Below are positions 11,389-63,555 of a stretch of DNA of 64,000 nt, in pieces. The translations under genes and the position numbers were made by a program. The notes under the pieces are model-generated. The model did not search any database, was not told where the DNA came from, and was given only the letters and a program-made list of their open reading frames with translations. How positions within the stretch are numbered: position 1 is the stretch's first letter; every line of letters begins with the position of its first letter. The stretch is from Candidatus Campbellbacteria bacterium GW2011_OD1_34_28 (GTDB lineage: Bacteria > Patescibacteriota > Minisyncoccia > Phycocordibacterales > UBA12079), in NCBI GenBank assembly GCA_001029775.1, contig CP011215.1, positions 554,303 through 618,302 of the forward strand, read 5' to 3'.

Positions 11389-12486
11389 TTATCTTTTTTG
11401 ATATCTGGAAATATTTAGAATAATTCCGACTTCTAATAATGTAATAAATAGTGCTGTTCCTCCGTGACTGACAAACAACAAAGGTATTCCTGTTAATGGA
11501 AATATTCCCAACATTGAAGCCATATTAATAAATGATTGGGACACTATCAGTATAACAATTCCAACCGCCAATAGTCTACCAAAAGTACTGTCTGATTTTG
11601 ATGCGATTTGGAATCCTCGAAAGGCAAACGCCAAGAATAGTGATATGAGCAAGACTGATCCAACAAATCCCCACTCTTCTGCTGTAACCGCAAAAATAGA
11701 GTCGCCTATTGGTTCAGGAAGATAGTTAAATTTTTGAATACTTTTTCCAAATCCTCTACCAAACCATTCTCCTGATCCAACAGCAATAAGAGATTGTTTT
11801 ATTTGGTATCCTGCTCCCAGACTATCTGCGGATGGGTTTAAAAAAGTGACTATTCTTTGTAGCACATATGGTTTCATCATTATCCACCCGCCAGCTCCCG
11901 CCAGTGCCACCCCTACCAAACCAAACAAATGACTCCACTTTGCTTCAGCTGCAAAAAATATACAAAATCCTGCAATTGCCAAAACTAAAAATGTTCCAGT
12001 ATCCGGTTGTTTCAATATCACCGCACCACTTATGACTATCATTCCAAGTAATGGGAAAAAACCATATTTTAAATTTTTTATCATTCCTTTAACACTGGCA
12101 AGCCACGCTGATAAATAAATAACAAAAGCTAGTTTCAAAAGTTCTGATGGTTGAAATGTTTGTCCTGCAATTTTAATCCATCTTTTTGCTCCGCCGTGCT
12201 CCATGCCCAAAAAAGGGACAAAGACCATCGCAGTTAGAAAAAGCGCAAAAAGAAAAATATAAAAAGCATATTTTCTATAATGAGTATAATGAACTCTGGA
12301 TGTTATAAACATAGCTGTTAAACCCAAAACAAGACCTAGAGCTATTTGATTAAACATAATAGAAGACATCCTTGCTCCCTCTCGTGTTAATAGCCCTAGA
12401 GACGCAGATGAAAATATAAAAAAACCAGACAAGACTAGTAGTCCTACAATAATCAAAAATATTTTATCCACATTTTTTCTGTGCAT
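11389..12486 (-). CDS. ftsW: SEDS-family cell division protein FtsW/RodA
   Basis: Multi-TM protein of the FtsW/RodA family, immediately upstream of murG (dcw cluster). Likely start at MHRKNV (12486) rather than the track start. Confidence 0.7.
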   Translation of the reverse strand: MHRKNVDKIFLIIVGLLVLSGFFIFSSASLGLLTREGARMSSIMFNQIALGLVLGLTAMFITSRVHYTHYRKYAFYIFLFALFLTAMVFVPFLGMEHGGAKRWIKIAGQTFQPSELLKLAFVIYLSAWLASVKGMIKNLKYGFFPLLGMIVISGAVILKQPDTGTFLVLAIAGFCIFFAAEAKWSHLFGLVGVALAGAGGWIMMKPYVLQRIVTFLNPSADSLGAGYQIKQSLIAVGSGEWFGRGFGKSIQKFNYLPEPIGDSIFAVTAEEWGFVGSVLLISLFLAFAFRGFQIASKSDSTFGRLLAVGIVILIVSQSFINMASMLGIFPLTGIPLLFVSHGGTALFITLLEVGIILNISRYQKR

Positions 12487-12561
12487 TGAGCTTATTATAC
12501 AATGCAAAATTTGAAATATGAAAAAAATATGTGAATACCAGCGCTGACGCGCAAGTATCAA

Positions 12562-13518
12562 GGTGTAAGTAGAAAGGTATAAGTAGAAAGGTGTAAGTAG
12601 AAAGGTGTAAGGGTTAAGTCATAAGAAACAAAAAAGTTTTTGACTATAAATATAAAAAATCAAAAATCCGCGGTTTAGCGCGGATTTTTGATTTAATTGT
12701 TTTTGATATCTATAAGCCGAATTCTGTATCCGTCGATTGACGGACGATAATTATTTATCTGGGATCGTTGTTGTCAACAACCTCTAGCGACTCCCCCAGT
12801 CGCTCCTCGCCAAGCTCGTCGCGAATTTTCAATTTTCAAGGTTCAATTTTCATTTGTTAAATGTAAATTGAAAATTGTTAAATGAAAATTCGTTCCGAAC
12901 GCAGTGAGGAACGGCTGGATACGGTCTTGCACTCAGGTAAGGATTTAGCCGTTTCACTTTCTATGTTTCCATAAAAACTAACCCCGAGGGGTTCTTAAAA
13001 TTTTTCAATTTTAAGCGTCTCTGCTCGCACCTCTAAAATCACTTTTGACGGGTGTTACCCGCTACCCTTGTCGCTCCTCGCTTCGCTCGGAGCAAGTAAT
13101 AAGGAGAAAGGCATAAGGAGTAAGTAAAAAATTTGCTCCGCAAATTTTTTCGTTTCTTATTACTTACACCTTACTACTTAATACTTGCGCGCCAGCGCAA
13201 CGAGGAACGACCGAGTGTTCGGACTTTCCTCTTGGTCATTCCTCACTGTGTTCGGAACGAAGAATTAGAATTTAGTATGAGAATTAGGAATTAAATTTGC
13301 AAGGCAAATTTAATTCTAATACTTTTCCCTAATACTTTGTGACGAATAAAGTGAGGAACAACCAAGCAATTATCCAATATCAAAGAACAAAGATATTATA
13401 TAGTACTGCTATTGACAAATCAAGCATTTTTGTTATTTACTCTTGACTAAACAGGGTTTTATATAGTATAGTTATGGGTAGAAATAGTGTCATTTTTTGA
13501 CAAAACAATATAACTTTT
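12562..13518. repeat. about 950-bp ORF-free, repeat-rich region with nested inverted repeats and multiple perfect hairpins (candidate structured ncRNA or MITE-like element)
   Basis: No ORF of 60 aa or more in any frame. Outer inverted repeat cgcgcaagtatcaaggtgtaagtag (12550) pairs with cttacacc...acttgcgcg (13165). Inner inverted repeat gttccgaacgcagtgaggaa (12886) pairs with ttcctcactgtgttcggaac (13237). GAGGAAC motif occurs 3 times. At least 8 short perfect hairpins. Confidence 0.35.
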
Positions 13519-17890: not shown

Positions 17891-18032
17891 TAGGTATATT
17901 TTACTTGAAATTGCTCTTTTTTAAAACAGATTAAGGGGGATAACGGAACGAAGCATCAAGGGGTAAGGGGTAAGGTGTAAGTATTAAGTAGTGAGTATTA
18001 AGTAGTAAGGGGTAAGTAGACGAGAAATTTGC

Positions 18033-18075
18033 CCTGCCTCTTTTCTGAAAGAAAAGCAACGACACGGCAGGCAGG
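18033..18075. repeat. 43-nt CCTGCC hairpin repeat (other copies 26120-26162, 29280-29318, 56741-56784)
   Basis: cctgcctcttttctgaaagaaaagcaacgacacggcaggcagg. Outer stem cctgcc/ggcagg encloses inner hairpin cttttct/agaaaag. Four near-identical copies in both orientations. Confidence 0.7.
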
Positions 18076-18152
18076 TTTACAAATTTCATTCTTGTCCGTC
18101 TTTGCGAGTGAAACGAAGCAATCCAGGACATTAATATTTTTTAAACAAAAAA

Positions 18153-18177
18153 CTCCCAGCACACAATGTGCCGGGAG
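18153..18177 (-). terminator. conserved cassette terminator T2 (ctcccagcac-N5-gtgctgggag); copies at 25565-25589 and 29397-29421
   Basis: Perfect or near-perfect 10-bp stem followed by a T-run on the minus strand. Three copies, each downstream of a minus-strand cargo gene. Confidence 0.65.
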
Positions 18178-18185
18178 TTTACAAA

Positions 18186-18920
18186 TTATCTTCGCAGGAT
18201 AGCTGTTTTTGCGAGAGAGAAAGATATTCCAGAAAAAACAGGAGCTTTTTGATAAAGAGATACCCCAAAACCCAGCACCGAACTTGTTTCTGCTTTTGTG
18301 AATAAATTCATTCCAATAAGACACACAACATTTCTACGTGCCTCTGAAAAAATGTTAGCCCCTACACAAACACACTGGATATCTTCATATGATTTTAAAA
18401 ACAAGTTAAAACCGCATACAATATAAATATCTTCAAACGCAAACGAAAAAGCATTTAAACCTGTAAAACAAAAAATATCGTTGTTTGAACTTGAAAATAA
18501 ATTAACACCGACAAGGCAAAAAATGTTAGATGCTTTTGAAAACAGATTTAAACCAAAGAAACAAGCAATATTTCCGCCTGCTTCTGAAAAAACATTAAAC
18601 CCCCACAATGTAAAAATATTTTTATGGGCACTCGAAAAAAAATTTAACCCGAAAACGGATTCACAGGAACCATCTTCGGCAACCTGGAAAAAAGATATCA
18701 AAGAATATATGTTTCCCTGTTCGCTCGCTCCCCCAAAAAGAGAAAAGGTTGCTCCAAAAATTTTCCACGGGTATGCCATCAAGAAAAATAACAGTGAAAT
18801 CCACAAACTGACAGTGTGCCCACTCAACCAATAAACAGAATTTGTTAAAATAGCAGAAATGGATCCTGCAAACAACAAATTAATTTCATCTACTTTTAAT
18901 GTAATTTTGGAAGTCCTCAT
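18186..18920 (-). CDS. membrane protein with about nine tandem 16-aa repeats (GxNxFSxAxxNIxCxx; beta-solenoid-like)
   Basis: Likely start MRTSK at 18920. N-terminal TM helices, then repeats encoded by a 48-nt DNA periodicity. Strand chosen by TM segments and the downstream T2 terminator. Reading on the plus strand cannot be fully excluded. Confidence 0.4.
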   Translation of the reverse strand: MRTSKITLKVDEINLLFAGSISAILTNSVYWLSGHTVSLWISLLFFLMAYPWKIFGATFSLFGGASEQGNIYSLISFFQVAEDGSCESVFGLNFFSSAHKNIFTLWGFNVFSEAGGNIACFFGLNLFSKASNIFCLVGVNLFSSSNNDIFCFTGLNAFSFAFEDIYIVCGFNLFLKSYEDIQCVCVGANIFSEARRNVVCLIGMNLFTKAETSSVLGFGVSLYQKAPVFSGISFSLAKTAILRR

Positions 18921-19077
18921 TTGTTTTCCCCTTATTCTGATGTTATTAGTTTCAAAACTACAATTTCTTTGCAAACTATAAACCACAAAAGATATCGAGT
19001 CAATGGCTTGGAAATAAAAGTAAAAAATAAAAAACAGCCTGCTCTAATGCAGGCTGTTTGGGGCGGTTGCTCGCCCG

Positions 19078-19338
19078 TCACCTTCTTCCGCCTCCTCGGT
19101 AACTCTCTCTACCACCGACAAATAATTTTTCGGTGAACTTACAAACAGGGTACATCACCAAACAAAAAATCCAGAGAGGGGTTAAACTTACCATGAAAAT
19201 TAAAAAAAGTACCAATTTTCCGAGAGTGAACATGTCGGCACATATCGCCAACATCACCACAGGTATTGAGTCTCCAGCCCTTACTGAGGCTGATGTGTCT
19301 TCAAAGCACACGTCCTTTATGTATTCTTTTATCTTCAT
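19078..19338 (-). CDS. small membrane protein (GC-rich cargo of family-1 cassette A)
   Basis: 86 aa. RBS ggaga plus ATG at 19338. Two TM helices. Hairpin terminator cagcctgc..gcaggctg at 19030-19062. Confidence 0.5.
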   Translation of the reverse strand: MKIKEYIKDVCFEDTSASVRAGDSIPVVMLAICADMFTLGKLVLFLIFMVSLTPLWIFCLVMYPVCKFTEKLFVGGRESYRGGGRR

Positions 19339-19473
19339 GTTGTCTCCTCATTTGTTTTGCGGACATTTAAGTTTTTCAAAAATTTTTAGGCGTTTTTTTC
19401 AAAACACCCTTATTTCCTATTTGTAATATTAACATAATTAAGCAACATTGTCAATTTATATAATAAAAACAAC
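19339..19473 (-). promoter_or_regulatory. family-1 conserved promoter (TTGACA-17-TAATAT) plus about 85-nt conserved leader; copies at 25949-26078 and 29962-30093
   Basis: Three diverged copies (roughly 85-90 percent identical by eye) of ttgaca..tagtat/taatat..aggaaataagggtgttttgaaa..gcctaaaaa, each ending in RBS plus the ATG of a different ORF. Confidence 0.6.
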
Positions 19474-19502
19474 AAAAAACCGCTTTAAAATAGCGGTTTT
19501 TT
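19474..19502 (-). terminator. conserved cassette terminator T1 (aaaaaaccgc-loop-gcggtttttt); copies at 26079-26107 and 30094-30122
   Basis: Bidirectional hairpin with A/T runs. It lies between the stop of an unrelated housekeeping gene (gyrA, pth, sigma-r4 gene) and the family-1 promoter. Confidence 0.65.
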
Positions 19503-19545
19503 GTATGTTGGGGTCTATTTTCTTACTCCTTAAACCTTACACCTA

Positions 19546-24701: not shown

Positions 24702-25493
24702 ATGAATAGTGAAGGTCGTTTTATTAGTATTACGGATTTTACTTGCCCTGAGCAGGTAAATTCTATGTTGGAATTAAGAAAAAAACTCAACAGCAAAATC
24801 CTTTTGGGCGTTGGAGTTATGATGAGTTATAAAACACTTCACGGATTCCCAACAAAATGGTCAAAATCTTTTCCAGAAAACAAAGATATTCCGTCTATTT
24901 TTATGGACAAAGAGGGTGTTTTTAATGTTTTACATTATGCGGATCAAAACAATGATTCATGTTGGGAAGATTTTTGGGCAGGGCTTGGTTATGCGGGTCC
25001 AAATGTTCATGCGATCCAGTTTGATATGACATGGCCACACCCTAACGATGTCCATTATGTAATTAGTAGCATGAAAGAAGAGGGGGCTCTTGTCGAAGTA
25101 ATTATACAAGTTGGACGAAAATCTTTTTTACAGGCAGGAAATACACCCAAAGGAATTATAAAAAGATTATCAGAATATTATTACAGAAACTGTTTGGGCT
25201 ATGTTCTTTTGGATAAAAGTATGGGCGAAGGGAAAATACTCAACCCTCACGAACTAATTCCTTTTATAGATGCGATTTACCAAAAGTGGCCAAATATTAA
25301 AATTGTTGTAGCGGGTGGTCTCGGTCCAGAAACAATTTCCACTGTGGAACCAATTTTGGACCTTTATCCCGTAAGTCTTTGTGCTCAATCCAGATTACGC
25401 CCCAGTTTTAATGCTTTAGACCCCATTGATTGGGATATGGCACAGGAATATTGGAAAAAAGCCGATGCTCTTTTTAAAAAATACGAAAAGTAA
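24702..25493 (+). CDS. TIM-barrel-like protein (weak PRAI/TrpF-like pattern)
   Basis: 263 aa. C-terminal IVVAGGLGPETI resembles the phosphate-binding loop of PRAI-type barrels. Weak. Confidence 0.3.
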   Translation: MNSEGRFISITDFTCPEQVNSMLELRKKLNSKILLGVGVMMSYKTLHGFPTKWSKSFPENKDIPSIFMDKEGVFNVLHYADQNNDSCWEDFWAGLGYAGPNVHAIQFDMTWPHPNDVHYVISSMKEEGALVEVIIQVGRKSFLQAGNTPKGIIKRLSEYYYRNCLGYVLLDKSMGEGKILNPHELIPFIDAIYQKWPNIKIVVAGGLGPETISTVEPILDLYPVSLCAQSRLRPSFNALDPIDWDMAQEYWKKADALFKKYEK

Positions 25494-25589
25494 TTTTTTC
25501 ACTTTAAAACCCCAGTAGCAGCAAGGCTATTGGGGTTTTGTTTAAAATTGAAAAAATAAAAAACTCCCAGCACGTGGTGTGCTGGGAGC

Positions 25590-25681
25590 AAAGTGTCAAT
25601 TTTGTCTCGGTTTTTAACTAACCGGAGGAATCTGCTTTCCTTGGGCTCTCCATTTTTTAAAAACGGGGACAAAATTTGTTG
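25590..25681 (-). promoter_or_regulatory. conserved 3' element of family-1 cassettes (copy 2 at 29422-29514)
   Basis: About 85 nt (gagtgtcaattttgtctcggttttt.actaaccggaggaatctgctttcctt.ggctctccatttttt) between the cargo stop codon and T2. Near-identical in two cassettes with unrelated ORFs. Confidence 0.55.
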
Positions 25682-25948
25682 TTACGGCAACTTCACCGTA
25701 ATCAACAGATTGCTAGGTATCGCTTCACACGGCACAGTCGACAGTGAAGCTATCTTCGCAAAACCCACCCACGTCTGATAGATAGCAAAGCACAAGCCTG
25801 TTCGTGGATCTTTCGTATACTGAATTCGTGCGACAGTATTGGTGACTTCTTTTATTATTGTATCTTCTTCCGTCGTCGCCGATGACGTTCCGAAGCCGAG
25901 AACCATAGCTACCAACGTAACGCAAATCATCATGGAAATCTTTTTCAT
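25682..25948 (-). CDS. small secreted protein (GC-rich cargo of family-1 cassette B)
   Basis: 88 aa. RBS aggagaagg plus ATG at 25948. Signal peptide MKKISMMICVTLVAMVLGFGTSSA. G+C-rich. Confidence 0.5.
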   Translation of the reverse strand: MKKISMMICVTLVAMVLGFGTSSATTEEDTIIKEVTNTVARIQYTKDPRTGLCFAIYQTWVGFAKIASLSTVPCEAIPSNLLITVKLP

Positions 25949-26185
25949 ACCTTCTCCTTCAATTGAATGACTTTTTTGTATTTCAATTTTTAGGCGTCTC
26001 TTTCAAAACACCCTTATTTCCTATTCATAATACTAACATAATTAAACAATACTGTCAATCTTTCTAACCAAAACAACCAAAAAACCGCTTAAAAATAGCG
26101 GTTTTTTGTGTTTCTAAAACCTGCCTCTTTTCTGAAAGAAAAGCAACGACACGGCAGGCAGGACTAAAAACTGACAACTAAAAAC

Positions 26186-26770
26186 TCAATTAAACTCGTT
26201 CATTGCTTTGTCTCTTCCCTCTTTTACAATCATTTCCAAAGCAATATTTATTTTTTTGCTTATCTTTTTTAAGACATCCATCTCAGGTTTTTTAAAGTCT
26301 TTCATTATCAAATTTAAAACCTTTTCTTCTCCTTTTGGTTTTTTCAGTTTACCCGTAGGGGTAGTAGGACAAATACCAATTCTAATTCTTGCAAATTCTT
26401 TTGTCTTGATTGTTTTCACGATTGATTCCAATCCATTGTGTCCACCTGTTCCCCTATTAAAAGATATTTTAAAATCACCTAGTCCAAGATCCAAATCGTC
26501 GTACATCACAATCAAATTTTCCGCATTATCTTTGTTAATTAAATCTTTCACACTCAAACCAGATTTATTCATAAATGTTTCCGGTTTTAAAAGAATCACA
26601 TTTTCTTTATCAATCTTTCCTTCTGATATCAAGGATTTATATTTTTTATTTTCATTCCAATCAGAAAAATCGTTACTTTTTGCAAAATAATCCAACATAA
26701 TTCTGCCTGTATTATGTCTCGTCATCTCATATTCTTTTCCCGGATTTCCTAGTCCAACGATTATGTACAT
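26186..26770 (-). CDS. pth: peptidyl-tRNA hydrolase
   Basis: Start at MYIIVGLGNPGKEYEMTRHNTGRIMLDYFAK, the Pth signature. Confidence 0.8.
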   Translation of the reverse strand: MYIIVGLGNPGKEYEMTRHNTGRIMLDYFAKSNDFSDWNENKKYKSLISEGKIDKENVILLKPETFMNKSGLSVKDLINKDNAENLIVMYDDLDLGLGDFKISFNRGTGGHNGLESIVKTIKTKEFARIRIGICPTTPTGKLKKPKGEEKVLNLIMKDFKKPEMDVLKKISKKINIALEMIVKEGRDKAMNEFN

Positions 26771-26872
26771 AAATATTAGTATAAAGTAGTAAGGATTAAG
26801 TAACAAGTAGAACGGGTCGACTTCGTCAACGCTGTTAGCTATCAGCTGTCCACTGTGAGCTTCGTCCGTGAA

Positions 26873-29239: not shown

Positions 29240-29514
29240 ACAATAAAATTAGTGGACAAAAAACATACCAATATACGAACCTGCCTGCCGTGTCGTTGCT
29301 TTTCTTTCAGAAAAGAGGTAGATGATGCGAATAATACGAATGCAATACAAATACAAACTTTACAAACACTGATGTTATTTTTTTAGTAATAAAAAACTCC
29401 CAGCACGCAATGTGCTGGGAGCGGAGTGTCAATTTTGTCTCGGTTTTTGACTAACCGGAGGAATCTGCTTTCCTTAGGCTCTCCATTTTTTAAAAATGGG
29501 GAAAAAAATTTTAT

Positions 29515-29961
29515 TTAATATTCTACTCCGAGGAAATAATCATCCTCGTTCCAGCTCCCATAAGCCCACTCGAGAAAAACCCCTTTCCCTTGGCTGTTGC
29601 TTTCAAACAACGTCGGCACATGCTTGGTTTTTTCTATTGAACACATCGAACCGAGTGCTGTTACTGAGAAAGGCTTTTGTAAAATTCTTTGGTTTATCCC
29701 GAAAGATAAAATCTCGTGGATAGTCGCTGGTCGACAACCCTCCCTGCTCATCCCAGAAAGAGTTTCGGTAATCCTCATACTCTTCCCGAAACAAAAAACC
29801 ACCAATTTCCTTTCTTCCACCTTCCCGTTCTTGGGACGAGGAAATTTTTCGAAGTGCCCCCTCCCTTGGGGGTATTTCTTGATGAGGTCATAGATAAGGC
29901 CGGGCACTTCCTGCGTTTCGTCAACAGGAACAACAAGCCGGTACTTTATATTAGTATTCAT
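29515..29961 (-). CDS. hypothetical cytoplasmic protein (GC-rich cargo of family-1 cassette C)
   Basis: 148 aa. RBS aaggagaagg plus ATG at 29961. G+C-rich. Bounded by the conserved leader and the conserved 3' element plus T2. Confidence 0.5.
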   Translation of the reverse strand: MNTNIKYRLVVPVDETQEVPGLIYDLIKKYPQGRGHFEKFPRPKNGKVEERKLVVFCFGKSMRITETLSGMSREGCRPATIHEILSFGINQRILQKPFSVTALGSMCSIEKTKHVPTLFESNSQGKGVFLEWAYGSWNEDDYFLGVEY

Positions 29962-30157
29962 AACCTTCTCCTTGTCCGCTTTGCGAACTTTTGTATTTCA
30001 ATTTTTAGGCGTTTCTTTCAAAACACCCTTATTTCCTACCTATGATATTAACATAATTAAACAGCACTGTCAATCTCTGTAACTAAAACAAGCAAAAAAC
30101 CGCTTATTTTAAGCGGTTTTTTGTTGTACTTTATAACTTTACAAACTTTAAGAACTT

Positions 30158-34553: not shown

Positions 34554-34729
34554 GAGAAAAAATATGACAGATGAACAAAAAAACGGTCTTCGGATAGGCA
34601 TCCGAATCGGGCTAATCCTTGTAATCGGACTAGGTCCTAAATAGAAAAAATCCCTGAGACATCTCAGGGATTTTATTTTTCTTCTCACGCCTTACCACTT
34701 ACACCTTAATCCTTACCCCTTACTACTAA

Positions 34730-36406
34730 CTAAAGTTCTCTTTTCTCAGGAATAACAATTCCCGATTTCCACACTCGCTTGTTAAACGCCTTTCTTGCTT
34801 CTTTTAATTCTCTATTATCCATTATCCAAAGTATAAAAATACCTGATAAAATTCCTGCTAATCCTGAAAATAATCCTTGCATAAAAATACCTTGCAAAGT
34901 ATTCAAATTTAGGAAATCGCCAAATATTGTCAAAAATCTATACGCAACAAAACCCATAATAATAGAAGTAAACAAGCTGTGCCAAAATGTTTTTGAAATG
35001 TTGTAAATAAATTTATCAAAATCTTTTTCAAACATTACCATCAACAAAATCGCATTTAACATTGTTCCCAATGAATAGCTAAATGCCAACATCAAAACCG
35101 TAGTGCCGAACAAATCCTCCACTCTGAACATATGCTCAACAAAATATCTAAACACATCATATTGTTCAAATAACCAGCTAAACAAAAAAGCAAAAACGAT
35201 TATAGAAAGAGACGATGATATATTTATCAATAATGGTCGTTTGGTGTTTCCCATCGCATAATAACCTCGTATAAAGAGCAGGATGAGGCTTTGAGCAGTC
35301 ACAGAAAAAGCAAACATCGCCAGACAAGCAGCCGTCAAACGAGTATCAGACCAATCAAACTGTCCCGATCCTAAAATAGTTCTAACTATCTGGGCTCGTA
35401 AAACTATAAACAAAGAAAGAGCGGGCAAAGACCAAAAGATGATGTGTCTTGATGCCGAAATCATTTGATTTAAAAATTTTTGTTTTTCACCAGCAGAAAA
35501 CAATCTCGCCAAAGTTGGAAAAGCAGCGACAGAATAACTTACTCCAATAATTCCCATCGGAACAGATTGAATATTAAAAGACAGATTAAACACAGCGATA
35601 GAACCAACTCCGACAGAAGAAGCAAGTGCTACAAGAAAAAAGAAAGCGATTTGATTTGCAGACATTGTCAATGTTCGAGGAAGTGAAAGCAGAGTAACTT
35701 TTTTAATATCTTTGTAATTAATTTTGGAAGTAAATTTTGGAAGAAGTCCGACACTTGAAGCAACAGGTATCTGGATTATTAAATGTAAAAATGCACCTAA
35801 AACAACTCCTGCTCCAAGACCATTTAGACCAAAACTTGGATACAAAAAATAGATTCCAAAAATTATTCCCAGATTATACAAAACAGGACTAATGGCATAA
35901 ATTAAAAACTTTCTGTTTAATTGAATGATGCTTGCAAACAAATTTGAAAGTCCCAACAAAATCGGGCTGAGCAGGAGAATTCTTGTCAAAGATATAGCCT
36001 CTGTCAAAGCAGTTTTTCCAAAACCAGGAAACATTTTTTCCACAATAAAAGGTGCTAAAAAGAAAACTACAAGACTGACCAATGAGATAAATCCAAAAAA
36101 TACAGTAAAAACACCGTCAATAAAATTTTGCATCCCTCCGTTTTCTTCTCGAGATTTGTCCGCAAGGAAAGGAATCAGGACAGATATAGAAACAATAGAA
36201 GCTACTGTTATAAAGATAAAATCTGGAATTCTAAAAGCCGCATAATAGATATCCAATGTCTCCCCTGCTCCAAAAAAAGAAGCGAGGGCTCTATCTCTAA
36301 CAAGTGCTAAAAGTTGAGAAGCAAAAGTAAAAGCACCTAAAAGATAAGCGGCCTCATGGAGTCCGCTTATCTCTCTGTTTAATAATTTAATGATTCTTTT
36401 AACCAT
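34730..36406 (-). CDS. murJ: lipid II flippase MurJ (MviN)
   Basis: 558 aa polytopic membrane protein. The N-terminal pattern LLGAFTFASQLLALVRDRALASFFGAG is the MurJ signature. Confidence 0.8.
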   Translation of the reverse strand: MVKRIIKLLNREISGLHEAAYLLGAFTFASQLLALVRDRALASFFGAGETLDIYYAAFRIPDFIFITVASIVSISVLIPFLADKSREENGGMQNFIDGVFTVFFGFISLVSLVVFFLAPFIVEKMFPGFGKTALTEAISLTRILLLSPILLGLSNLFASIIQLNRKFLIYAISPVLYNLGIIFGIYFLYPSFGLNGLGAGVVLGAFLHLIIQIPVASSVGLLPKFTSKINYKDIKKVTLLSLPRTLTMSANQIAFFFLVALASSVGVGSIAVFNLSFNIQSVPMGIIGVSYSVAAFPTLARLFSAGEKQKFLNQMISASRHIIFWSLPALSLFIVLRAQIVRTILGSGQFDWSDTRLTAACLAMFAFSVTAQSLILLFIRGYYAMGNTKRPLLINISSSLSIIVFAFLFSWLFEQYDVFRYFVEHMFRVEDLFGTTVLMLAFSYSLGTMLNAILLMVMFEKDFDKFIYNISKTFWHSLFTSIIMGFVAYRFLTIFGDFLNLNTLQGIFMQGLFSGLAGILSGIFILWIMDNRELKEARKAFNKRVWKSGIVIPEKREL

Positions 36407-42573: not shown

Positions 42574-42720
42574 CCAAATAGCCAATGGATTTTCGGGCAA
42601 CATTGCCCAAGAACTAATTTGTTAAAATAGTAACATAAAAACAAAATAAATCAACGATTTTGTGTAGTCTTTTCAACATCCATTTTTGAAGATTTTGGGG
42701 TATTAGTTTTTGTATTTTGA
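42574..42720 (-). promoter_or_regulatory. family-2 conserved promoter plus leader (copy 2 at 45194-45345)
   Basis: About 110 nt near-identical in both copies: cccaagaactaattt.ttaaaatagtaaca.aaa.acaaa.taaatcaacgattttgtgtagtcttttcaacatccatttttgaagattttggggtat. Each ends with RBS plus the ATG of an unrelated G+C-rich ORF. Confidence 0.55.
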
Positions 42721-45193: not shown

Positions 45194-45345
45194 TTTCTAC
45201 CTCCTTAGGCAATTATGGATTTCGCGGGCAATATCGCCCAAGAACTAATTTATTAAAATAGTAACACAAATACAAATTAAATCAACGATTTTGTGTAGTC
45301 TTTTCAACATCCATTTTTGAAGATTTTGGGGTATAATTTTAGGAT

Positions 45346-46089
45346 ATGAAAGAGACTATCTCTAAAATACCGGTTAACGACAAAAGAAACACCCACATTG
45401 ACTGTAAAAGCGACACCATTCCAATTAAATTCTCGTATTTTTTAATCAGAAAAATATTTGGACCAATTGTTAAATTAATCTGGGTTAAAAAAGTAACAGG
45501 ATTACATAATATTCCTTTGAAAGGACCTGTATTAGTTGCCTTTAATCATCAAAGTTACTTTGACTTTATTTGTTTTATTGCTATATCGCCCAGAAATGTT
45601 CACTATCTCTCGGCGGAAAAATTTTTTACCAATGCTCTTTGGTTGCCACTAATGAGAATAACTGGACAAATTGAGGTAAAAAGGACAAGTAAAGACAAAA
45701 GAGAAGTTCATAATCTGGTTAATGAACATTTACGCAGAGGCTTTATGATTGGAATATTTCCGGAAGGAACGCGAAATCCAGATGAAACACAAATGTTAAA
45801 GGCTTTTACCGGTGTAGCAAAATATGCATCATTAAATTGTATTCCGGTAATACCTGTTGGAATAAAACATGCTGAAAAAGTGATGAATCGTTACGATAAA
45901 AAACCAAAATTCAAAAAAATAATAGAGTTTCATATTGGGGATCCTATTCATTTTCACCCATACACTGACAGGGCAAAACTCAACAAAAAATCAATAAGAA
46001 CATTAACAACAAAAATAATGCTTCGAATAGAAAAATTATCAGGTAAACCTTATCCTCACAGAGAAAAATGGGAAACAATAACGGCATAG
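45346..46089 (+). CDS. plsC: 1-acyl-sn-glycerol-3-phosphate acyltransferase
   Basis: 247 aa. NHQSYFD (HX4D) and FPEGTR motifs. Confidence 0.75.
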   Translation: MKETISKIPVNDKRNTHIDCKSDTIPIKFSYFLIRKIFGPIVKLIWVKKVTGLHNIPLKGPVLVAFNHQSYFDFICFIAISPRNVHYLSAEKFFTNALWLPLMRITGQIEVKRTSKDKREVHNLVNEHLRRGFMIGIFPEGTRNPDETQMLKAFTGVAKYASLNCIPVIPVGIKHAEKVMNRYDKKPKFKKIIEFHIGDPIHFHPYTDRAKLNKKSIRTLTTKIMLRIEKLSGKPYPHREKWETITA

Positions 46090-51339: not shown

Positions 51340-51417
51340 TATCAAAAGGCGGGCTTTCGCAAGAAAGCCCGCCCTTTTTATTTTCAAAATTTCTTACACC
51401 TTACCCCTTACACCTTA

Positions 51418-52380
51418 CTACTCGACTTGTCCTATCTGATTAATACTTGAATTCACCAATTTTATTACATCATCAAATCTCCCCTCTTTGCTAGATCCCA
51501 AAACAGAAACAATTATCGGATGACCAATTCCGACATCAAACACGACCACCAAATTTCCCCCCGCCAAATCTGTAAATCCTGTTTTTGATCCAATAATCCC
51601 TGGGATATTTTCAACAAATTGATTTGTGTTTTCAAACAAATGATTTTTGTTATCCGAACTTATTCTTAACACAGGATATTTTGTCGCTTCAATCAATTTA
51701 TAATTGTTTTTTATAATATGATTCATTAGAAAAGCTATGTCTTTTGCCGAGCCATAAGCTCCACTCACAAGATCACTCTCATCAAGACCAGACTCGTTCA
51801 AGAAAAAAGTTTGCGCCAAACCGATTTCTTTTGCTTTTTTATTCATCTCATCTATAAACATTTCTCTTTCTGTTTTTTCACCATCTTTCAGTCTGATATA
51901 TCCGATAACAGAAGCGAGAGCATGTGCTCCATCATTTGAAGAAGCAGTTAATGTCATATCTGAAACATTTTTAAATTTTAAATTTTCTCCAACAAGCAAC
52001 CCATTGTCCCCTTCTATATTCAGATCTTCTTGTCTTATTGTAATGACAGTGTCTTTTGAAACCAATTCAGAAGATACAAGCACAGTCATAAGTTTTGTTA
52101 AAGAAGCAAGAGGCAGTTGTGTTTCGGCGTTTTTTTGAAAAAGAATTTCTCCTGTTTTTGCATCAAAAACAAATGCCGATTTTGCTTCCAATTCACCAGA
52201 AATATCTTTGAAATAATTCTTCTCTATCTTTGTTACCACACCCGCGTTTTCTTCCAATTTTTTATTTTCATTGTTCTTCCAAAAAATCCAAAACAAAACA
52301 ATCACCATTATAAAAATAATGACTGAAACAGCGATCAAAATTATTCTTTTTTTGTCATCAAAAAAATTCATATTATTCAT
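51418..52380 (-). CDS. D-alanyl-D-alanine carboxypeptidase (S11, PBP5-like)
   Basis: SxxK (ASLTKLMT) serine active site after an N-terminal TM. Start trimmed to avoid overlap with scpB. Confidence 0.65.
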   Translation of the reverse strand: MNNMNFFDDKKRIILIAVSVIIFIMVIVLFWIFWKNNENKKLEENAGVVTKIEKNYFKDISGELEAKSAFVFDAKTGEILFQKNAETQLPLASLTKLMTVLVSSELVSKDTVITIRQEDLNIEGDNGLLVGENLKFKNVSDMTLTASSNDGAHALASVIGYIRLKDGEKTEREMFIDEMNKKAKEIGLAQTFFLNESGLDESDLVSGAYGSAKDIAFLMNHIIKNNYKLIEATKYPVLRISSDNKNHLFENTNQFVENIPGIIGSKTGFTDLAGGNLVVVFDVGIGHPIIVSVLGSSKEGRFDDVIKLVNSSINQIGQVE

Positions 52381-56592: not shown

Positions 56593-56929
56593 AAGTCTGA
56601 TTTAAATTATTCACTAATAAAATCGACCTATATAGAAAATTGTTTGTCAGATGTAGAGTAAGTTTCGCTTTTTCAAGCGGAAGACTATATATAGATATTA
56701 TATCACAGACAAGGCTGATAGCCGATAGCTTATAGCCAATACCTGCCTGCCGTGTCGTTGCTTTTCTTTTAGAAAAGAAGCAGGGATGATAGTAACGATG
56801 AGCGAGTTTTTAATTTGACACACTGTTTCGTAATTCAAAAAAGAGAGAAATTTGTTTCACAAATTTCTCTCTTTTTTTTCTTACTGACTATCAGCTATAA
56901 GCTATCGGCTATTGGCTTTTTATTTGATT

Positions 56930-58155: not shown

Positions 58156-58731
58156 TATCTTTAAAATAAGATTGATAATTTATTTAGAAGCCTTTTTGTC
58201 TTTTTTAGGCTTTTTTACATTTTTCTTTTGTTTGTCTCTACCTTTTGCCATATATCAAATTAGTAGTAAGGTGTAAGGATTAAGTAGTAAGTAAAATTTT
58301 GCTTTGCAAAATTTTTTTATACTTCAAACTTTTCTTTTCTACTTTTTAAATTAATTAATAAACTTTTATAAGTAAATTATAGCACCGTTCGTCTTTGCGA
58401 GTAACAAAGTAATCCACAACATTCACATTTCATAATTCAAAACCCTTTACTCAATCCATACGACCGTATAAATTGAGTAAAATGTTCCAAATAGATCATA
58501 GTTTTAATAGTTAATTATTATAAAATATTTCGTAGTCTATTTTCTTTTAAAATCTGCCCACAAAGACAAAATACCGAGAGCAAGAAACAAAGATGCTTCC
58601 AACCAATTTTCTTCTTGAATTGCCGTAATCAAAGCAATCCCAAAGAAAAGAATAAAAACTGTTATGTTTACAAATCCTATGTTTTTCATTTTCATAATTT
58701 GATTATTTTTAATTTAGTATTTTGATGCTTC

Positions 58732-59563: not shown

Positions 59564-59780
59564 CGATAAACAAAAATACCGATTGAGGTATTTTAATTAA
59601 ACAAATAAAAACGACCACATTGTGGTCGTTTTCTCTCTGGTTTGCTCAATCCTGAAAAGCGGTTGAGCGAGTTGGATTGTCACCAGAGAAGGACATTCCC
59701 TCTCGCTTGACTATACATATAGTAACATATCAGATAGAAAAGTCAATAGTAACATCAATTATAAAATATCCTATATTTCA

Positions 59781-59855
59781 TTTACTTTTTAACTCAAATA
59801 TTGTAGTGTTTCAAATAGATTAAGAACTTTTAGAAAGCTTTACAAGGAGAAAAAG
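59781..59855 (+). promoter_or_regulatory. family-4 conserved leader (copy 2 at 62380-62454)
   Basis: tttactttttaactcaaatattgtagtgtttcaaatagatt.agaactttt.gaa..ctt...aaggagaaaa.ATG. Near-identical in both copies. Confidence 0.5.
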
Positions 59856-60227
59856 ATGAAAAAAATTGAAATTCCCTACTTTATTCAAATGCGAGGTTGC
59901 ATCAATTGTGAAATCTCAAAGAAACACAAAGAAAAAACTGGGAAAAAATATGGTTTTGACCATGAATTAATGTCTGTGTGTGTCATTAGAGGCTGTACTT
60001 CCAAAGGCTATAGCCTAGGACGACCATTTTTTGATATGGAACAACTTTTGGAAACTGTCCCTAAAAAAATTGAAAATCCAAAAAAAGCATTATCTCTTGT
60101 TGAACAACATCGTAATGATACAAAAAATAATTATGGTGTTTATTACAAAGAACTTGGTGTTGATATAGATGAAGCCTTTGATAATATTCGACGGAAAATT
60201 CAACAGCAATTAGACCTTAAACCGTAG
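59856..60227 (+). CDS. Cys-rich small protein
   Basis: 123 aa. CINCE and CVIRGC motifs. RBS aaggag. Confidence 0.45.
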   Translation: MKKIEIPYFIQMRGCINCEISKKHKEKTGKKYGFDHELMSVCVIRGCTSKGYSLGRPFFDMEQLLETVPKKIENPKKALSLVEQHRNDTKNNYGVYYKELGVDIDEAFDNIRRKIQQQLDLKP

Positions 60228-60238
60228 AGGAGAAATAA

Positions 60239-60616
60239 ATGACAACACACACATTTTCAAAAGAGTGGCCCGAGAGATGGGCAAGGTCAGATAAAGCATG
60301 GTCCAAGTGGAAAAAAGACGCAGAAAAAGGGAAATTTCCCAAACCAAGAGATCTCCAAAAGACTTGTGGTTATTGTGAAGAACATGGGGGAGTTTTTAGA
60401 GAAAAAGATCCTGACTGTGATAAATGTACTTTATATAAAAAATATATTTGTCACAACATCCTTCTTGTCCAAATGTCAGACATCCCCATATTTTGGTTAC
60501 TTGTTAGGGAACTTAAAAGAAACGAGATAGATAAACCTCGTGTGATCAGATTAATAAGCAGAATAGCCGATGCTATCAAAGAAGATGACCCTTCAAAAAC
60601 GACTGTTTCTGCATAA
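60239..60616 (+). CDS. Cys-rich small protein (paralog of 62455..62850)
   Basis: 125 aa. WPERW, CGYCEE, CDKC, and a conserved C-terminus IKEDDPSKTTVSA. Followed by twin hairpin terminators at 60625-60697. Confidence 0.5.
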   Translation: MTTHTFSKEWPERWARSDKAWSKWKKDAEKGKFPKPRDLQKTCGYCEEHGGVFREKDPDCDKCTLYKKYICHNILLVQMSDIPIFWLLVRELKRNEIDKPRVIRLISRIADAIKEDDPSKTTVSA

Positions 60617-60624
60617 AGAAAACA

Positions 60625-60697
60625 AAGGCTGACTTTCGCCAAAAGCGAAAGTCAGCCTTTTAAAATTGTAAGACGTCCGACTTCTTACATTTTTTTA
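60625..60697 (+). terminator. twin hairpin terminators (duplicated at 62856-62921)
   Basis: aaggctgactttcgccaaaagcgaaagtcagcctt, then tgtaagacgtccgacttcttaca plus a T-run. Near-identical second copy after 62455..62850. Confidence 0.65.
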
Positions 60698-62277: not shown

Positions 62278-62454
62278 GTTCTTTCCTCCTGAAACTGGGT
62301 TAGTTAAAAATACATCTGATTAATATAATATTGTTTTTTAAATAAAAATCAACAGCAAGCAAAAGTTTAAACTTTTTTATTTACTTTTTAACTCAAATAT
62401 TGTAGTGTTTCAAATAGATTGAGAACTTTTTGAATCTTTGAAAAAGGAGAAAAT

Positions 62455-62850
62455 ATGCAAGAACAAGAAGAAAAACATGTCTATTCTGACAAATGGCCTA
62501 AGAGATGGAAAGAATCTTTGGACAAGTGGCAAAAAGTTAAAGAACTGCATCAAAACAATATTTCGAATATAAAAATTAAGATAAAAATAGGAGGAAGTTG
62601 CGGTTATTGTAAAGAATTTGGTGCAATTTCTCTTTCGAGTATACCATGCCTGAAATGTAGCCTTTTTCAGAAAAAAATTTGTATATGTTTAAGAGGAGAC
62701 GCTATAACATCTGGGCGTTTTGCATATTGGGAATTATTTAATGAACTCACTAAAAAAGATCACAGCAAAGAAATCATCAGCTCATGTATTGATAAAATAA
62801 TTACCGCCATAGAAGAAGACGATCCTTCAAAAGTGACGGCTTCTGCATAA
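62455..62850 (+). CDS. Cys-rich small protein (paralog of 60239..60616)
   Basis: 131 aa. WPKRW, CGYCKE, CLKC, and C-terminus IEEDDPSKVTASA. Confidence 0.5.
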   Translation: MQEQEEKHVYSDKWPKRWKESLDKWQKVKELHQNNISNIKIKIKIGGSCGYCKEFGAISLSSIPCLKCSLFQKKICICLRGDAITSGRFAYWELFNELTKKDHSKEIISSCIDKIITAIEEDDPSKVTASA

Positions 62851-62923
62851 AAACAAAGGCTGACTTTCGCCAAAAGCGAAAGTCAGCCTTTTAAAATTGT
62901 AAAACGTCCGACATCTTACAATT

Positions 62924-63298
62924 TTAAAACTTGAATAAGTTTTTTAGTTTGTTCAAAAAACCTTTGTCTGTTTCTGTAGGAACATAATTTTGTTTTTCGT
63001 CCACAATCATAATTATATTTTCACCTTCTTTTGCTACCTGAAACTTGCTTCTGATCTCTTCTTCTTTACCTTCTGATGTATTTAAACTGGAAATCTCTGT
63101 TTTAACAAAATCTTTTCTTGTTTTTAATTCTATTAATTCATTCTCTGCAACATTTCTATTATCACCTGTCAGCTTTGCTTCTCTATAAGCATTCCATGTT
63201 CCCTTGGCGATTAAAAGAAAAAGTATAAAAACAATCCCGACACTTATGCGAGAATAAATAATTCTTTTTACATATCGTTTTTCCTCATAATCCAACAT
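62924..63298 (-). CDS. septum formation initiator-like protein (FtsB/DivIC-type)
   Basis: 124 aa. Single TM, then a coiled coil. Confidence 0.4.
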   Translation of the reverse strand: MLDYEEKRYVKRIIYSRISVGIVFILFLLIAKGTWNAYREAKLTGDNRNVAENELIELKTRKDFVKTEISSLNTSEGKEEEIRSKFQVAKEGENIIMIVDEKQNYVPTETDKGFLNKLKNLFKF

Positions 63299-63555
63299 TG
63301 CTTTTATTTTAACAAAATAAAAGCGATTTATAAAATTAACAACTTTCTTGCTACTTAATACTTATTACTTTATACTTATTTTTATGATATTTGATAAGAA
63401 AAATAAAAAAATAATAAAGATTTTTTGGATGGTTTTGGGAGCACTTTTAATCGTTAGTATGATATTGCTCTATACTCCATTATTTTTTTAAGAGATTGTC
63501 TAAGAATTAAAAAAGGCCTCGTGCAAGCACGAGGCCTTTTTGGTTCTCTTCAGGT

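Follow-up and report, generated by a model that had tools for sequence, protein, structure and literature searches.

A conserved, low-copy palindromic 3' element behind unrelated accessory genes of a Candidatus Campbellbacteria genome

Introduction

The 'positive retroregulator' of Bacillus thuringiensis cry1Aa is a 3' stem-loop of the type that protects the 3' end of the mRNA. Small RNAs can also be derived from 3'UTRs, as is the case for CpxQ, SroC and DapZ. The genomes of CPR bacteria are tiny, and the cells do not grow on their own. To our knowledge, hardly anything is known of post-transcriptional signals in this group or of how its members acquire and lose strain-specific genes. REP stem-loops obstruct 3'-5' exonucleases (PMC2777011). 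SPRITE repeats cluster at the 3' ends of coding sequences and have been proposed to be co-opted as terminators (PMC3049150), and CREE and ERIC repeats are co-transcribed and affect expression (PMC2649163, PMC10969869). A literature search on repeats of Campbellbacteria brought up nothing relevant.

Here we describe an imperfect palindrome that is followed by an intrinsic terminator and occurs twice in a 64,000-nt stretch of a Candidatus Campbellbacteria genome, which is called the window throughout. Exact-protein matches assign the window to a groundwater genome of this group (Paceibacterota, CPR), GCA_003489565.1. The 3'-end location and the terminator hairpin resemble those of SPRITE, whereas tens of copies were not found in the DNA that was scanned, there is no sequence relationship and the host belongs to a different phylum.

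Results

A preliminary description of the window had pointed to two near-identical sequences, each between the stop codon of a cargo gene and a terminator, T2. The pair is borne out: positions 25590-25670 and 29423-29503 are identical at 75 of 81 sites (92.6%) in an ungapped alignment with an offset of 3833. The second copy had been placed at 29422-29505, a range that does hold the homology, with ends that are off by 1-2 nt. The stretch before T2 is shared as described, and the homologous block takes in the terminator too, so that it spans 25555-25684 and 29388-29517 (117/130, 90% identical; blastn E ~1e-39). The 100 nt flanking the block on each side are unrelated (16-33% identity), and the window has exactly two occurrences of a 23-mer taken from the block, against none in 100 dinucleotide shuffles. 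The cargo ORFs at 25682-25948 and 29515-29961, both on the minus strand, gave a BLASTP E of 20, and the claim that they are unrelated is confirmed. The order of cargo stop, element and T2 is correct on the minus strand and not otherwise. The block lies on this strand, starts 5-7 nt past the TAA of the 88-aa and 148-aa ORFs, and ends in T2, a canonical intrinsic terminator. The tail common to both genes is about 125 bases long and consists of the palindromic segment of about 88 bases and the terminator. The anatomy given earlier, a conserved non-coding stretch from the cargo stop codon to an intrinsic terminator in cassettes with unrelated ORFs, is therefore the one that we find.

Read on the minus strand, the module consists of the imperfect palindrome of ~88 nt, a conserved GACAC, a variable linker of ~9 nt and T2. 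Copy B of the element (25590-25677, minus strand) scored 116.6 bits with covariance model R1. Its outer arms lie at 25668-25676 and 25598-25606, its hairpins at 25650-25666 (H1), 25626-25641 (H2) and 25608-25624 (H3), and its variable linker at 25590-25597. The T2 of cassette B (25557-25589, minus strand) has a stem of 11 pairs, 7 of them GC (GCTCCCAGCAC / GTGCTGGGAG(T)), a 5-nt loop, a T6 tract and a TTTTTTATTTT tail. Copy C (29423-29512, minus strand; 113.1 bits with model R1) keeps H1-H3 intact and has two left-arm changes that weaken the outer stem; its T2 lies at 29390-29422 on the same strand. On the minus strand both terminators (25589-25563 and 29422-29396) have the 11-bp stem with 7 GC pairs, the 5-nt loop and the TTTTTTATT tail of an intrinsic terminator, and the region holds 24 terminator-type sites against 7.7 expected. 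The 20-nt inverted arms match at 18/20 positions in copy B, 14/20 in copy C and 15/20 in a further copy from a related species (L001, see below).

Searches for known RNA genes gave no match at the element. Rfam 15 at gathering threshold returned tRNA-Gln alone for the whole window, and an E-value scan of 25400-26250 gave sub-threshold matches of the chance type, the best of which reached 25.3 bits where the threshold is 65. With ARAGORN the element gave no tRNA- or tmRNA-like gene, and on the minus strand no promoter-like site was found within it or just upstream.

Several other roles were considered and rejected. The conserved TTGACA beside T2 has no -10 box at a spacing that a promoter could use. 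Copy B has no co-oriented gene downstream on which a riboswitch or attenuator might act. Antiterminator pairing with T2 is limited to a 4-bp GGAG/CUCC match, and pairing of the 5'UTR with the 3'UTR gives a duplex energy worse than most shuffles. Pairing of the DGR VR/TR type does not fit a repeat that lies outside ORFs and whose differences are not adenine-specific.

RNAalifold predicted a four-way junction with a 9-bp closing stem and the hairpins H1-H3. Overall 97% of cells pair, and compensatory changes are found at 0 of 26 pairs. The covariation check that had been proposed for the element thus yielded no compensatory change that supports an RNA fold. Two pairs of the closing stem are broken in copy C, and the local hairpins H1-H3 show no variation across the three full variants. 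Of the six variable sites, three are in loops or in the junction, two break outer-stem pairs of copy C, and one is a G.U/A-U switch in H1 that makes a standard pair on the minus strand only. In the predicted fold AGAGCC, the loop AGCAGA and ACAAAAUUGACAC are single-stranded and invariant. The z-scores of the fold against shuffles were -3.4 (B), -1.4 (C) and -3.3 (L001), copy C being no better than shuffles, and the plus strand folds equally well, so folding energy picks no strand. At site C of another relative, L016, the element lacks its left 56 nt (H1 and half of H2) while cargo, H3, linker and T2 are kept; the full structure is therefore dispensable there, and only H3, linker and T2 are universal among the copies. 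The modelled structure of the element is plausible.

The units that end in this module are moron-like, self-contained cassettes sited between housekeeping genes; each has a promoter and leader, an ORF and a 3' module of its own, and is therefore self-contained. Cargo B (25682-25948, minus strand; TAA stop at 25682-25684) is an 88-aa orphan ORF with a signal-peptide-like N-terminus. Its 5' module (25949-26115, minus strand) comprises an upstream terminator hairpin (26078-26108), a promoter (TTGACA 26053-26058, TAGTAT 26030-26035), a leader with a GAAA-loop hairpin (25992-26013) and the RBS AAGGAGAAGG (25950-25959). Cargo C (29515-29961, minus strand), a 148-aa orphan ORF, is preceded by a 5' module at 29962-30124 on the same strand, with the hairpin at 30093-30123, the promoter at 30045-30073, and then leader and RBS. 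Cassette A, which follows gyrA, has the same 5' module as B and C (19362-19505, minus strand). This drives an 86-aa ORF (19078-19338), whose different terminator is at 19032-19059. The end of cassette A, behind the cargo at 18186-18920, is a T2-type terminator (18144-18180, minus strand), and the 88-nt element is absent. The 5' modules at 19362-19505, 25949-26115 and 29989-30124 (minus strand) and at L016 8457-8622 are 80-89% identical upstream of unrelated ORFs. In cassettes B and C the dissimilar ORFs are bracketed by homology of 80-88% on the 5' side and 90-93% on the 3' side; diverged 5' modules (~63-66%) are present in lineage 2, L017 and L020. The hairpin of the 5' module is a bidirectional terminator (AAAAAACCGC...GCGGTTTTTT) that closes the preceding housekeeping gene. 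The promoter is of the sigma-70 type, TTGACA-17-TAnTAT with a TG extension (extended -10), and the leader has a 9-bp GAAA-tetraloop hairpin followed by an AAGGAG RBS. Annotation of the cargos with Pfam, PHROGs and PADLOC gave no match. The cargo at 18186-18920 (A2, minus strand) is a 244-aa orphan, likewise with no Pfam, PHROG or PADLOC match, that has an N-terminal hydrophobic segment and about 10 tandem units of ~17 aa of the G(L/F)N(L/F)FSxA type.

Other repeats are found in the window. A palindromic REP-like element of 43-45 nt (CCTGCCTCTTTTCTGAAAGAAAAGCAACGACACGGCAGGCAGG) adjoins cassettes at 18033-18077, 26120-26162, 29278-29321 (inverted) and 56741-56785 (inverted). Two of them, at 26121-26162 and 29280-29321, make up an inverted pair with DUF8128-YceG-pth between them. 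A 100% identical copy is present at L020 818-860, in a lineage that agrees with the window at only 46% of fourfold sites, and short-read contigs end inside this palindrome. Tandem repeats of 7 or 14 nt that are rich in GTAAG (e.g. AAGTAGAAAGGTGT) occupy many intergenic regions on either strand (12539-12639, 13156-13187, 17937-18023, 26749-26812, 34678-34732, 51390-51424, 58259-58296 and 63347-63378). A direct repeat of 116 nt (42594-42709 and 45225-45340, 93% identical) has a GGGCAAyATyGCCC hairpin and a promoter-like end, and one copy lies just upstream of an acyltransferase gene at 45346. A second pair of units, 59776-60694 and 62375-62925, has a 5' leader in common (83%) and likewise a 3' end with two hairpins (96%). 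Its ORFs at 60239-60616 and 62455-62850 are paralogs, and this pair is therefore an ordinary duplication.

A scan of 185,579 GTDB species-representative genomes with the core sequence gave one real locus, L001, which belongs to a different species and encodes a DUF8128 protein with 91% identity. JGI metagenomes gave two real loci, both of them copy B of close strains; the JGI matches L004 and L005 were rejected as high-GC chance matches. An exact-core scan of IMG/VR found none, and a blastn comparison of the element with phage sequences gave no match. Syntenic loci were obtained through DUF8128 homologs of 98%, 93%, 91% and 81% identity. They share the gene order LepA, sigma-like gene, site C, DUF8128, YceG, pth, site B and a 263-aa gene, continued by S1, lactamase_B, gyrA, site A and a methyltransferase gene. 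The covariance model was run over ~196 kb from syntenic relatives and ~35 kb around homologs of cargo B. Lineages 1 and 2 gave copy B, identical in both, lineage 1 also gave copy C, and site C gave a full copy in L001 and the shortened one in L016; in the 81% lineage the model found no copy, and no diverged copies were detected in the ~196 kb and ~35 kb. The search for more copies that had been suggested thus brought a further full copy (L001) and the half copy of L016, and otherwise just copy B of close strains.

The element has two copies in the 64-kb window and 1-2 per genome in a clade of four close lineages, and it is therefore not a general expression device. It follows three unrelated cargos, of 88 aa, 148 aa and, in L001, 121 aa. 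In other Patescibacteria, distant homologs of cargo B are flanked by different promoters and plain terminators of their own and lack the element. The flanks are therefore lineage-specific and part of the cassette frame, and are not specific to the cargo. According to the preliminary description, occurrence at only two places with no conserved secondary structure or transcript end would speak against the element. The data come close to this, as the window holds only these two copies and the public sequences searched add just copy B of close strains, one full copy and one half copy; on the other side there is a predicted transcript end, hairpins that do not vary among the three full variants, and conservation above the neutral baseline.

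The sites of these cassettes are hot spots at which cargo is swapped, absent or replaced among relatives. Site C has five different cargos across relatives: lineage 1 has the 148-aa ORF there and lineage 2 an allele of it with 32% identity, L001 and L016 have an unrelated ORF of 121 aa, and the 81% lineage has other ORFs. The 32%-identical allele (E=1e-13) has a different leader, a different terminator and no element. The flanking genes of lineages 1 and 2 are 98-99% identical, yet the whole cassette is replaced at site C, the exchanged segment starting right behind the upstream hairpin and ending right before the RBS of DUF8128 (window 29240-30130 compared with L003 6700-7600 and L021 9000-10000). 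Site B holds a zeta-toxin gene in L001 (4756-5520) and, in L017-20 of the 81% lineage, DUF5678 with an Asp-protease-like gene (L017 7454-8049). In L016 it is empty (12260-12305), with the pth stop, one terminator and the stop of the convergent gene. This is the one empty site that was found when such sites were sought, as had been proposed for the element, and what is absent there is the whole cassette, element included. At site A of L021 (20230-20345) and L018 (10750-10866) a T2-type hairpin lies 13 nt after the -35 TTGACA of the 5' module. There is no -10 box, leader or ORF, leaving a frame without cargo, which probably arose by deletion between the modules. A Pfam search for integrases, recombinases and transposases among window ORFs of at least 110 aa found none, and in L001 a fragment of an rve-family transposase lies immediately upstream of the cassette. 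The cassette idea gains circumstantial support from the persistence of the element at an orthologous site where the cargo differs.

Copy C and the L001 copy, which belong to different species, are identical at 85/90 positions of the element (94%) and 30/33 positions of T2. The window and L001 agree at 61-70% of the fourfold sites in flanking genes, and the remaining L001 intergenic region gives no alignment to the window; alignable intergenic DNA of the window and L016 is 60-88% identical. Between L001 and L016, where the cargo was inherited vertically (fourfold identity 0.68), the retained right half of the element is identical at 36 of 38 positions. Copy C is nearer to the L001 copy (93-94%) than to copy B (90%), and therefore the duplication into B and C seems older than that speciation. 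Copy B is identical at 141/141 positions in lineages 1 and 2, which is uninformative at a background divergence of only about 1-3%. Taken at the level of sequence, this conservation argues for purifying selection on the element. High identity could also come from recent transfer or gene conversion instead of selection. Fourfold identity between the window and L016 is 0.83 in the sigma-like gene and 0.61 in DUF8128, indicating mosaic recombination.

Discussion

Our preferred reading, which is tentative and which we hold to be possible rather than probable, is that the element is a structured 3'UTR-plus-terminator module of accessory cassettes that defines and probably protects the mRNA 3' end and provides homology for exchange. 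The upstream hairpin would insulate each cassette from the housekeeping gene, and transcription from the sigma-70-type promoter would give an RNA with a GNRA-loop leader, a strong RBS and the orphan ORF. At the other end the 3' module may form three short hairpins and a long-range stem that closes them, followed by the linker and T2. T2 would set the mRNA 3' end, and the stem-loops upstream of it might hinder 3'-to-5' exonucleolytic decay, either as REP and retroregulator stem-loops do or in the manner of SPRITE and other terminator-like repeats that were co-opted. The modules shared at the 5' and 3' ends could incidentally serve as homology for the exchange of cargo ORFs by ordinary recombination. 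The location of the element agrees with such a role, the ORFs ending 5-7 nt before it and a canonical terminator coming after it. Homologous 5' and 3' modules bracket dissimilar ORFs, and in L001 a third unrelated cargo (121 aa) precedes the element at the orthologous C site. Against this reading, the cargo C homolog has a plain terminator and cassette A has T2 without the element. The lack of compensatory changes, the broken stem pairs and shuffle-like fold of copy C, the equally good fold of the plus strand and the half element of L016 also speak against it.

The element might instead be an inert leftover of an ancestral cassette, for example an old 3' flank or the decayed end of a mobile element, that is carried along with a useful T2. 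Its high identity would then reflect recent copying or gene conversion and not selection. This would account for the presence of 1-2 copies per genome in four close lineages, for the deletion of half the element in L016 with cargo and T2 intact, for T2 standing alone at the A site, and for the decaying outer stem of copy C and the absence of covariation. The mosaic recombination in the region (fourfold identity to L016 of 0.83 vs 0.61) is also compatible with it. However, the B/C split seems older than a speciation with fourfold identity of 61-70%, yet identity is at least 90%, and the right halves of L001 and L016 agree at 36/38 sites against a cargo fourfold identity of 0.68. We regard an inert passenger as unlikely, though not markedly so. 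Quite doubtful is a (formerly) mobile repeat of the MITE or SPRITE kind, with terminal inverted repeats and a terminator-like hairpin, that settled downstream of genes and came to serve as their terminator region. The inverted arms of 20 nt, which match imperfectly (18/20 in B, 14/20 in C, 15/20 in L001), correspond to the terminal inverted repeats of MITEs, and the copy number of a MITE may be just 1 per genome (PMC10969869). An AT-rich, non-coding sequence of <200 bp at CDS 3' ends is like SPRITE (PMC3049150). The element stands behind three unrelated genes, and the rve-family transposase fragment lies upstream of the L001 cassette. No target-site duplication is visible, however, the right flank being conserved in all copies, with homology that runs beyond the right arm through GACAC, linker and T2. 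No precise empty site for the element alone was found; the L016 B site is without the whole cassette. No extra copies appeared in the 196 kb and 35 kb of related DNA, in the genome of the GTDB representative or in the JGI metagenomes, and the 64-kb window has no transposase.

A small RNA of ~120 nt, made up of the element and T2, could be processed from the cargo mRNAs and act in trans. A conserved sequence before a strong terminator on different mRNAs is the typical layout of 3'UTR-derived small RNAs, and the invariant single-stranded stretches of the predicted fold would suit it. It is nevertheless improbable, because the minus strand has no promoter-like site inside or just upstream of the element, Rfam gives no match, the L016 variant lacks half, and the element is too lineage-restricted for a core regulator. 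Very improbable, in our judgement, is a DNA recombination site for capture or exchange of cassettes, that is, an attC-like folded hairpin read by a recombinase encoded elsewhere. In favour of such a site, the element has about the size of attC, is imperfectly palindromic and stands at the 3' end of cassette ORFs, cargo changes at one chromosomal site while the element stays, there is turnover at fixed hot spots, and the T2 fused 13 nt past the -35 box in L021 and L018 looks like an emptied cassette. However, neither GTTRRRY nor RYYYAAC cores occur on either strand of any copy, the window ORFs of at least 110 aa include no integrase or recombinase, and the cassettes are dispersed with their own promoters and not arranged in promoterless arrays. 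The replacement at site C exchanges the cassette in full, the element with it, and its breakpoints lie outside the element; the L016 junction is a simple deletion. To a coding origin we give hardly any credence. The element would then be, or recently have been, part of a protein gene, through a plus-strand GTG ORF (MSILSRFLTNRRNLLSLGSPFFKNG...) or a minus frame (..SPFLKNGEPKESRFLRLVKNRDKIDT..). Only these two frames, mutually antisense, are open across the element, and in a comparison of 25598-25676, 29431-29509 and L001 629-718, 5/6 variable sites fell in one codon phase (p about 0.05). Both frames share this phase and the changes are mostly synonymous in both, so that the bias, which is borderline, favours coding. 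The minus frame is also in phase with the cargo after its TAA in copies B and C. Yet a word match of both frame peptides in 5.8 billion protein sequences found none, and HMMER with both frames against 1.84 billion representatives returned nothing but a spurious tandem-repeat ORF. Copy C gives the minus frame no start codon, in L001 that frame is not in phase with the cargo, L016 truncates both frames, and TAA is used as a normal stop by other genes of the window. The plus ORF runs antisense into the cargo, has no promoter, and varies in C-terminus and length between copies (30, 47 and 61 aa), so that its ends differ in every copy as those of a small-protein gene should not. As stated in the preliminary description, the plus-strand ORFs are not conserved as proteins; they are antisense to the cargo and have no protein homologs, and the ~26 first codons that they share are shared solely because the DNA itself is shared.

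A bolder proposal goes beyond the 3'UTR module that we prefer. The 5' module and the palindromic 3' element, together with T2 and possibly the 44-nt palindrome, might be the ends of an undescribed cassette-exchange system of CPR bacteria, which we consider a long shot. Such a system would have fixed chromosomal landing pads, at which unrelated orphan genes would be taken up and swapped between an unchanging promoter and leader and an unchanging hairpin-forming 3' site, and a recombinase that reads folded DNA, and would be functionally analogous to integrons with each cassette individually expressed and insulated.

The locus shows orphan genes at fixed hot spots inside a reusable frame of promoter and leader on one side and 3'UTR and terminator on the other, and this frame is better conserved than the genes that it carries. 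Were the 3' module to stabilise transcripts, CPR biology would gain a native expression part; were it to have a role in exchange, this would be a pointer to a new route of gene capture. The element is a lineage-restricted, low-copy 3' module whose interest lies mainly in accessory-gene turnover in CPR genomes. As a low-copy, clade-specific module with a putative function, it is therefore of modest general significance.

Each of the known systems shares part of this arrangement. With integron cassettes the locus has in common unrelated ORFs with an imperfect palindrome of similar size behind each of them, and a turnover of cargo at a fixed site. The 88-nt element lies within the attC range (a palindrome of ~57-141 nt directly 3' of the ORF). 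Unlike attC, it has no core sites, as RYYYAAC and GTTRRRY motifs are absent from both strands of copies B, C and L001, and there is no integrase and no promoterless tandem array, each cassette having its own promoter. Phage morons likewise come with a promoter and a terminator of their own, lie between conserved syntenic genes and vary in presence among close relatives (PMC3594210). The cassettes differ from morons in occupying a chromosomal CPR site with no phage genes nearby and in that several of them share regulatory flanks; the cargos had no PHROG match and blastn gave no phage match, which leaves the phage context of a moron absent. The 3'UTR-derived small RNAs resemble the element as conserved sequences that share the terminator of an mRNA, whereas the element is specific to one clade and a single genome has it on two mRNAs. 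SPRITE-like repeats are short, AT-rich and non-coding, with inverted-repeat ends and a terminator-like hairpin, and are found at CDS 3' termini within restricted lineages, as the element is. Such families have tens to hundreds of copies, and BOX, RUP and CREE also have target-site duplications. The element, in contrast, has two copies per genome, no visible target-site duplication and always the same separate terminator, and in the window the repeat is accompanied by a matching 5' module. The E. coli REP/BIME sequences and the cry1Aa retroregulator are similar to the element in lying between stop codon and transcript end, as imperfect palindromes that form stem-loops (predicted here) behind unrelated genes. 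REP is ~35 nt long and present in hundreds of copies, whereas the element is ~88 nt long, has 1-2 copies per genome and is fused to one terminator. By analogy, the element would work most like the 3' stem-loops of the REP or retroregulator type.
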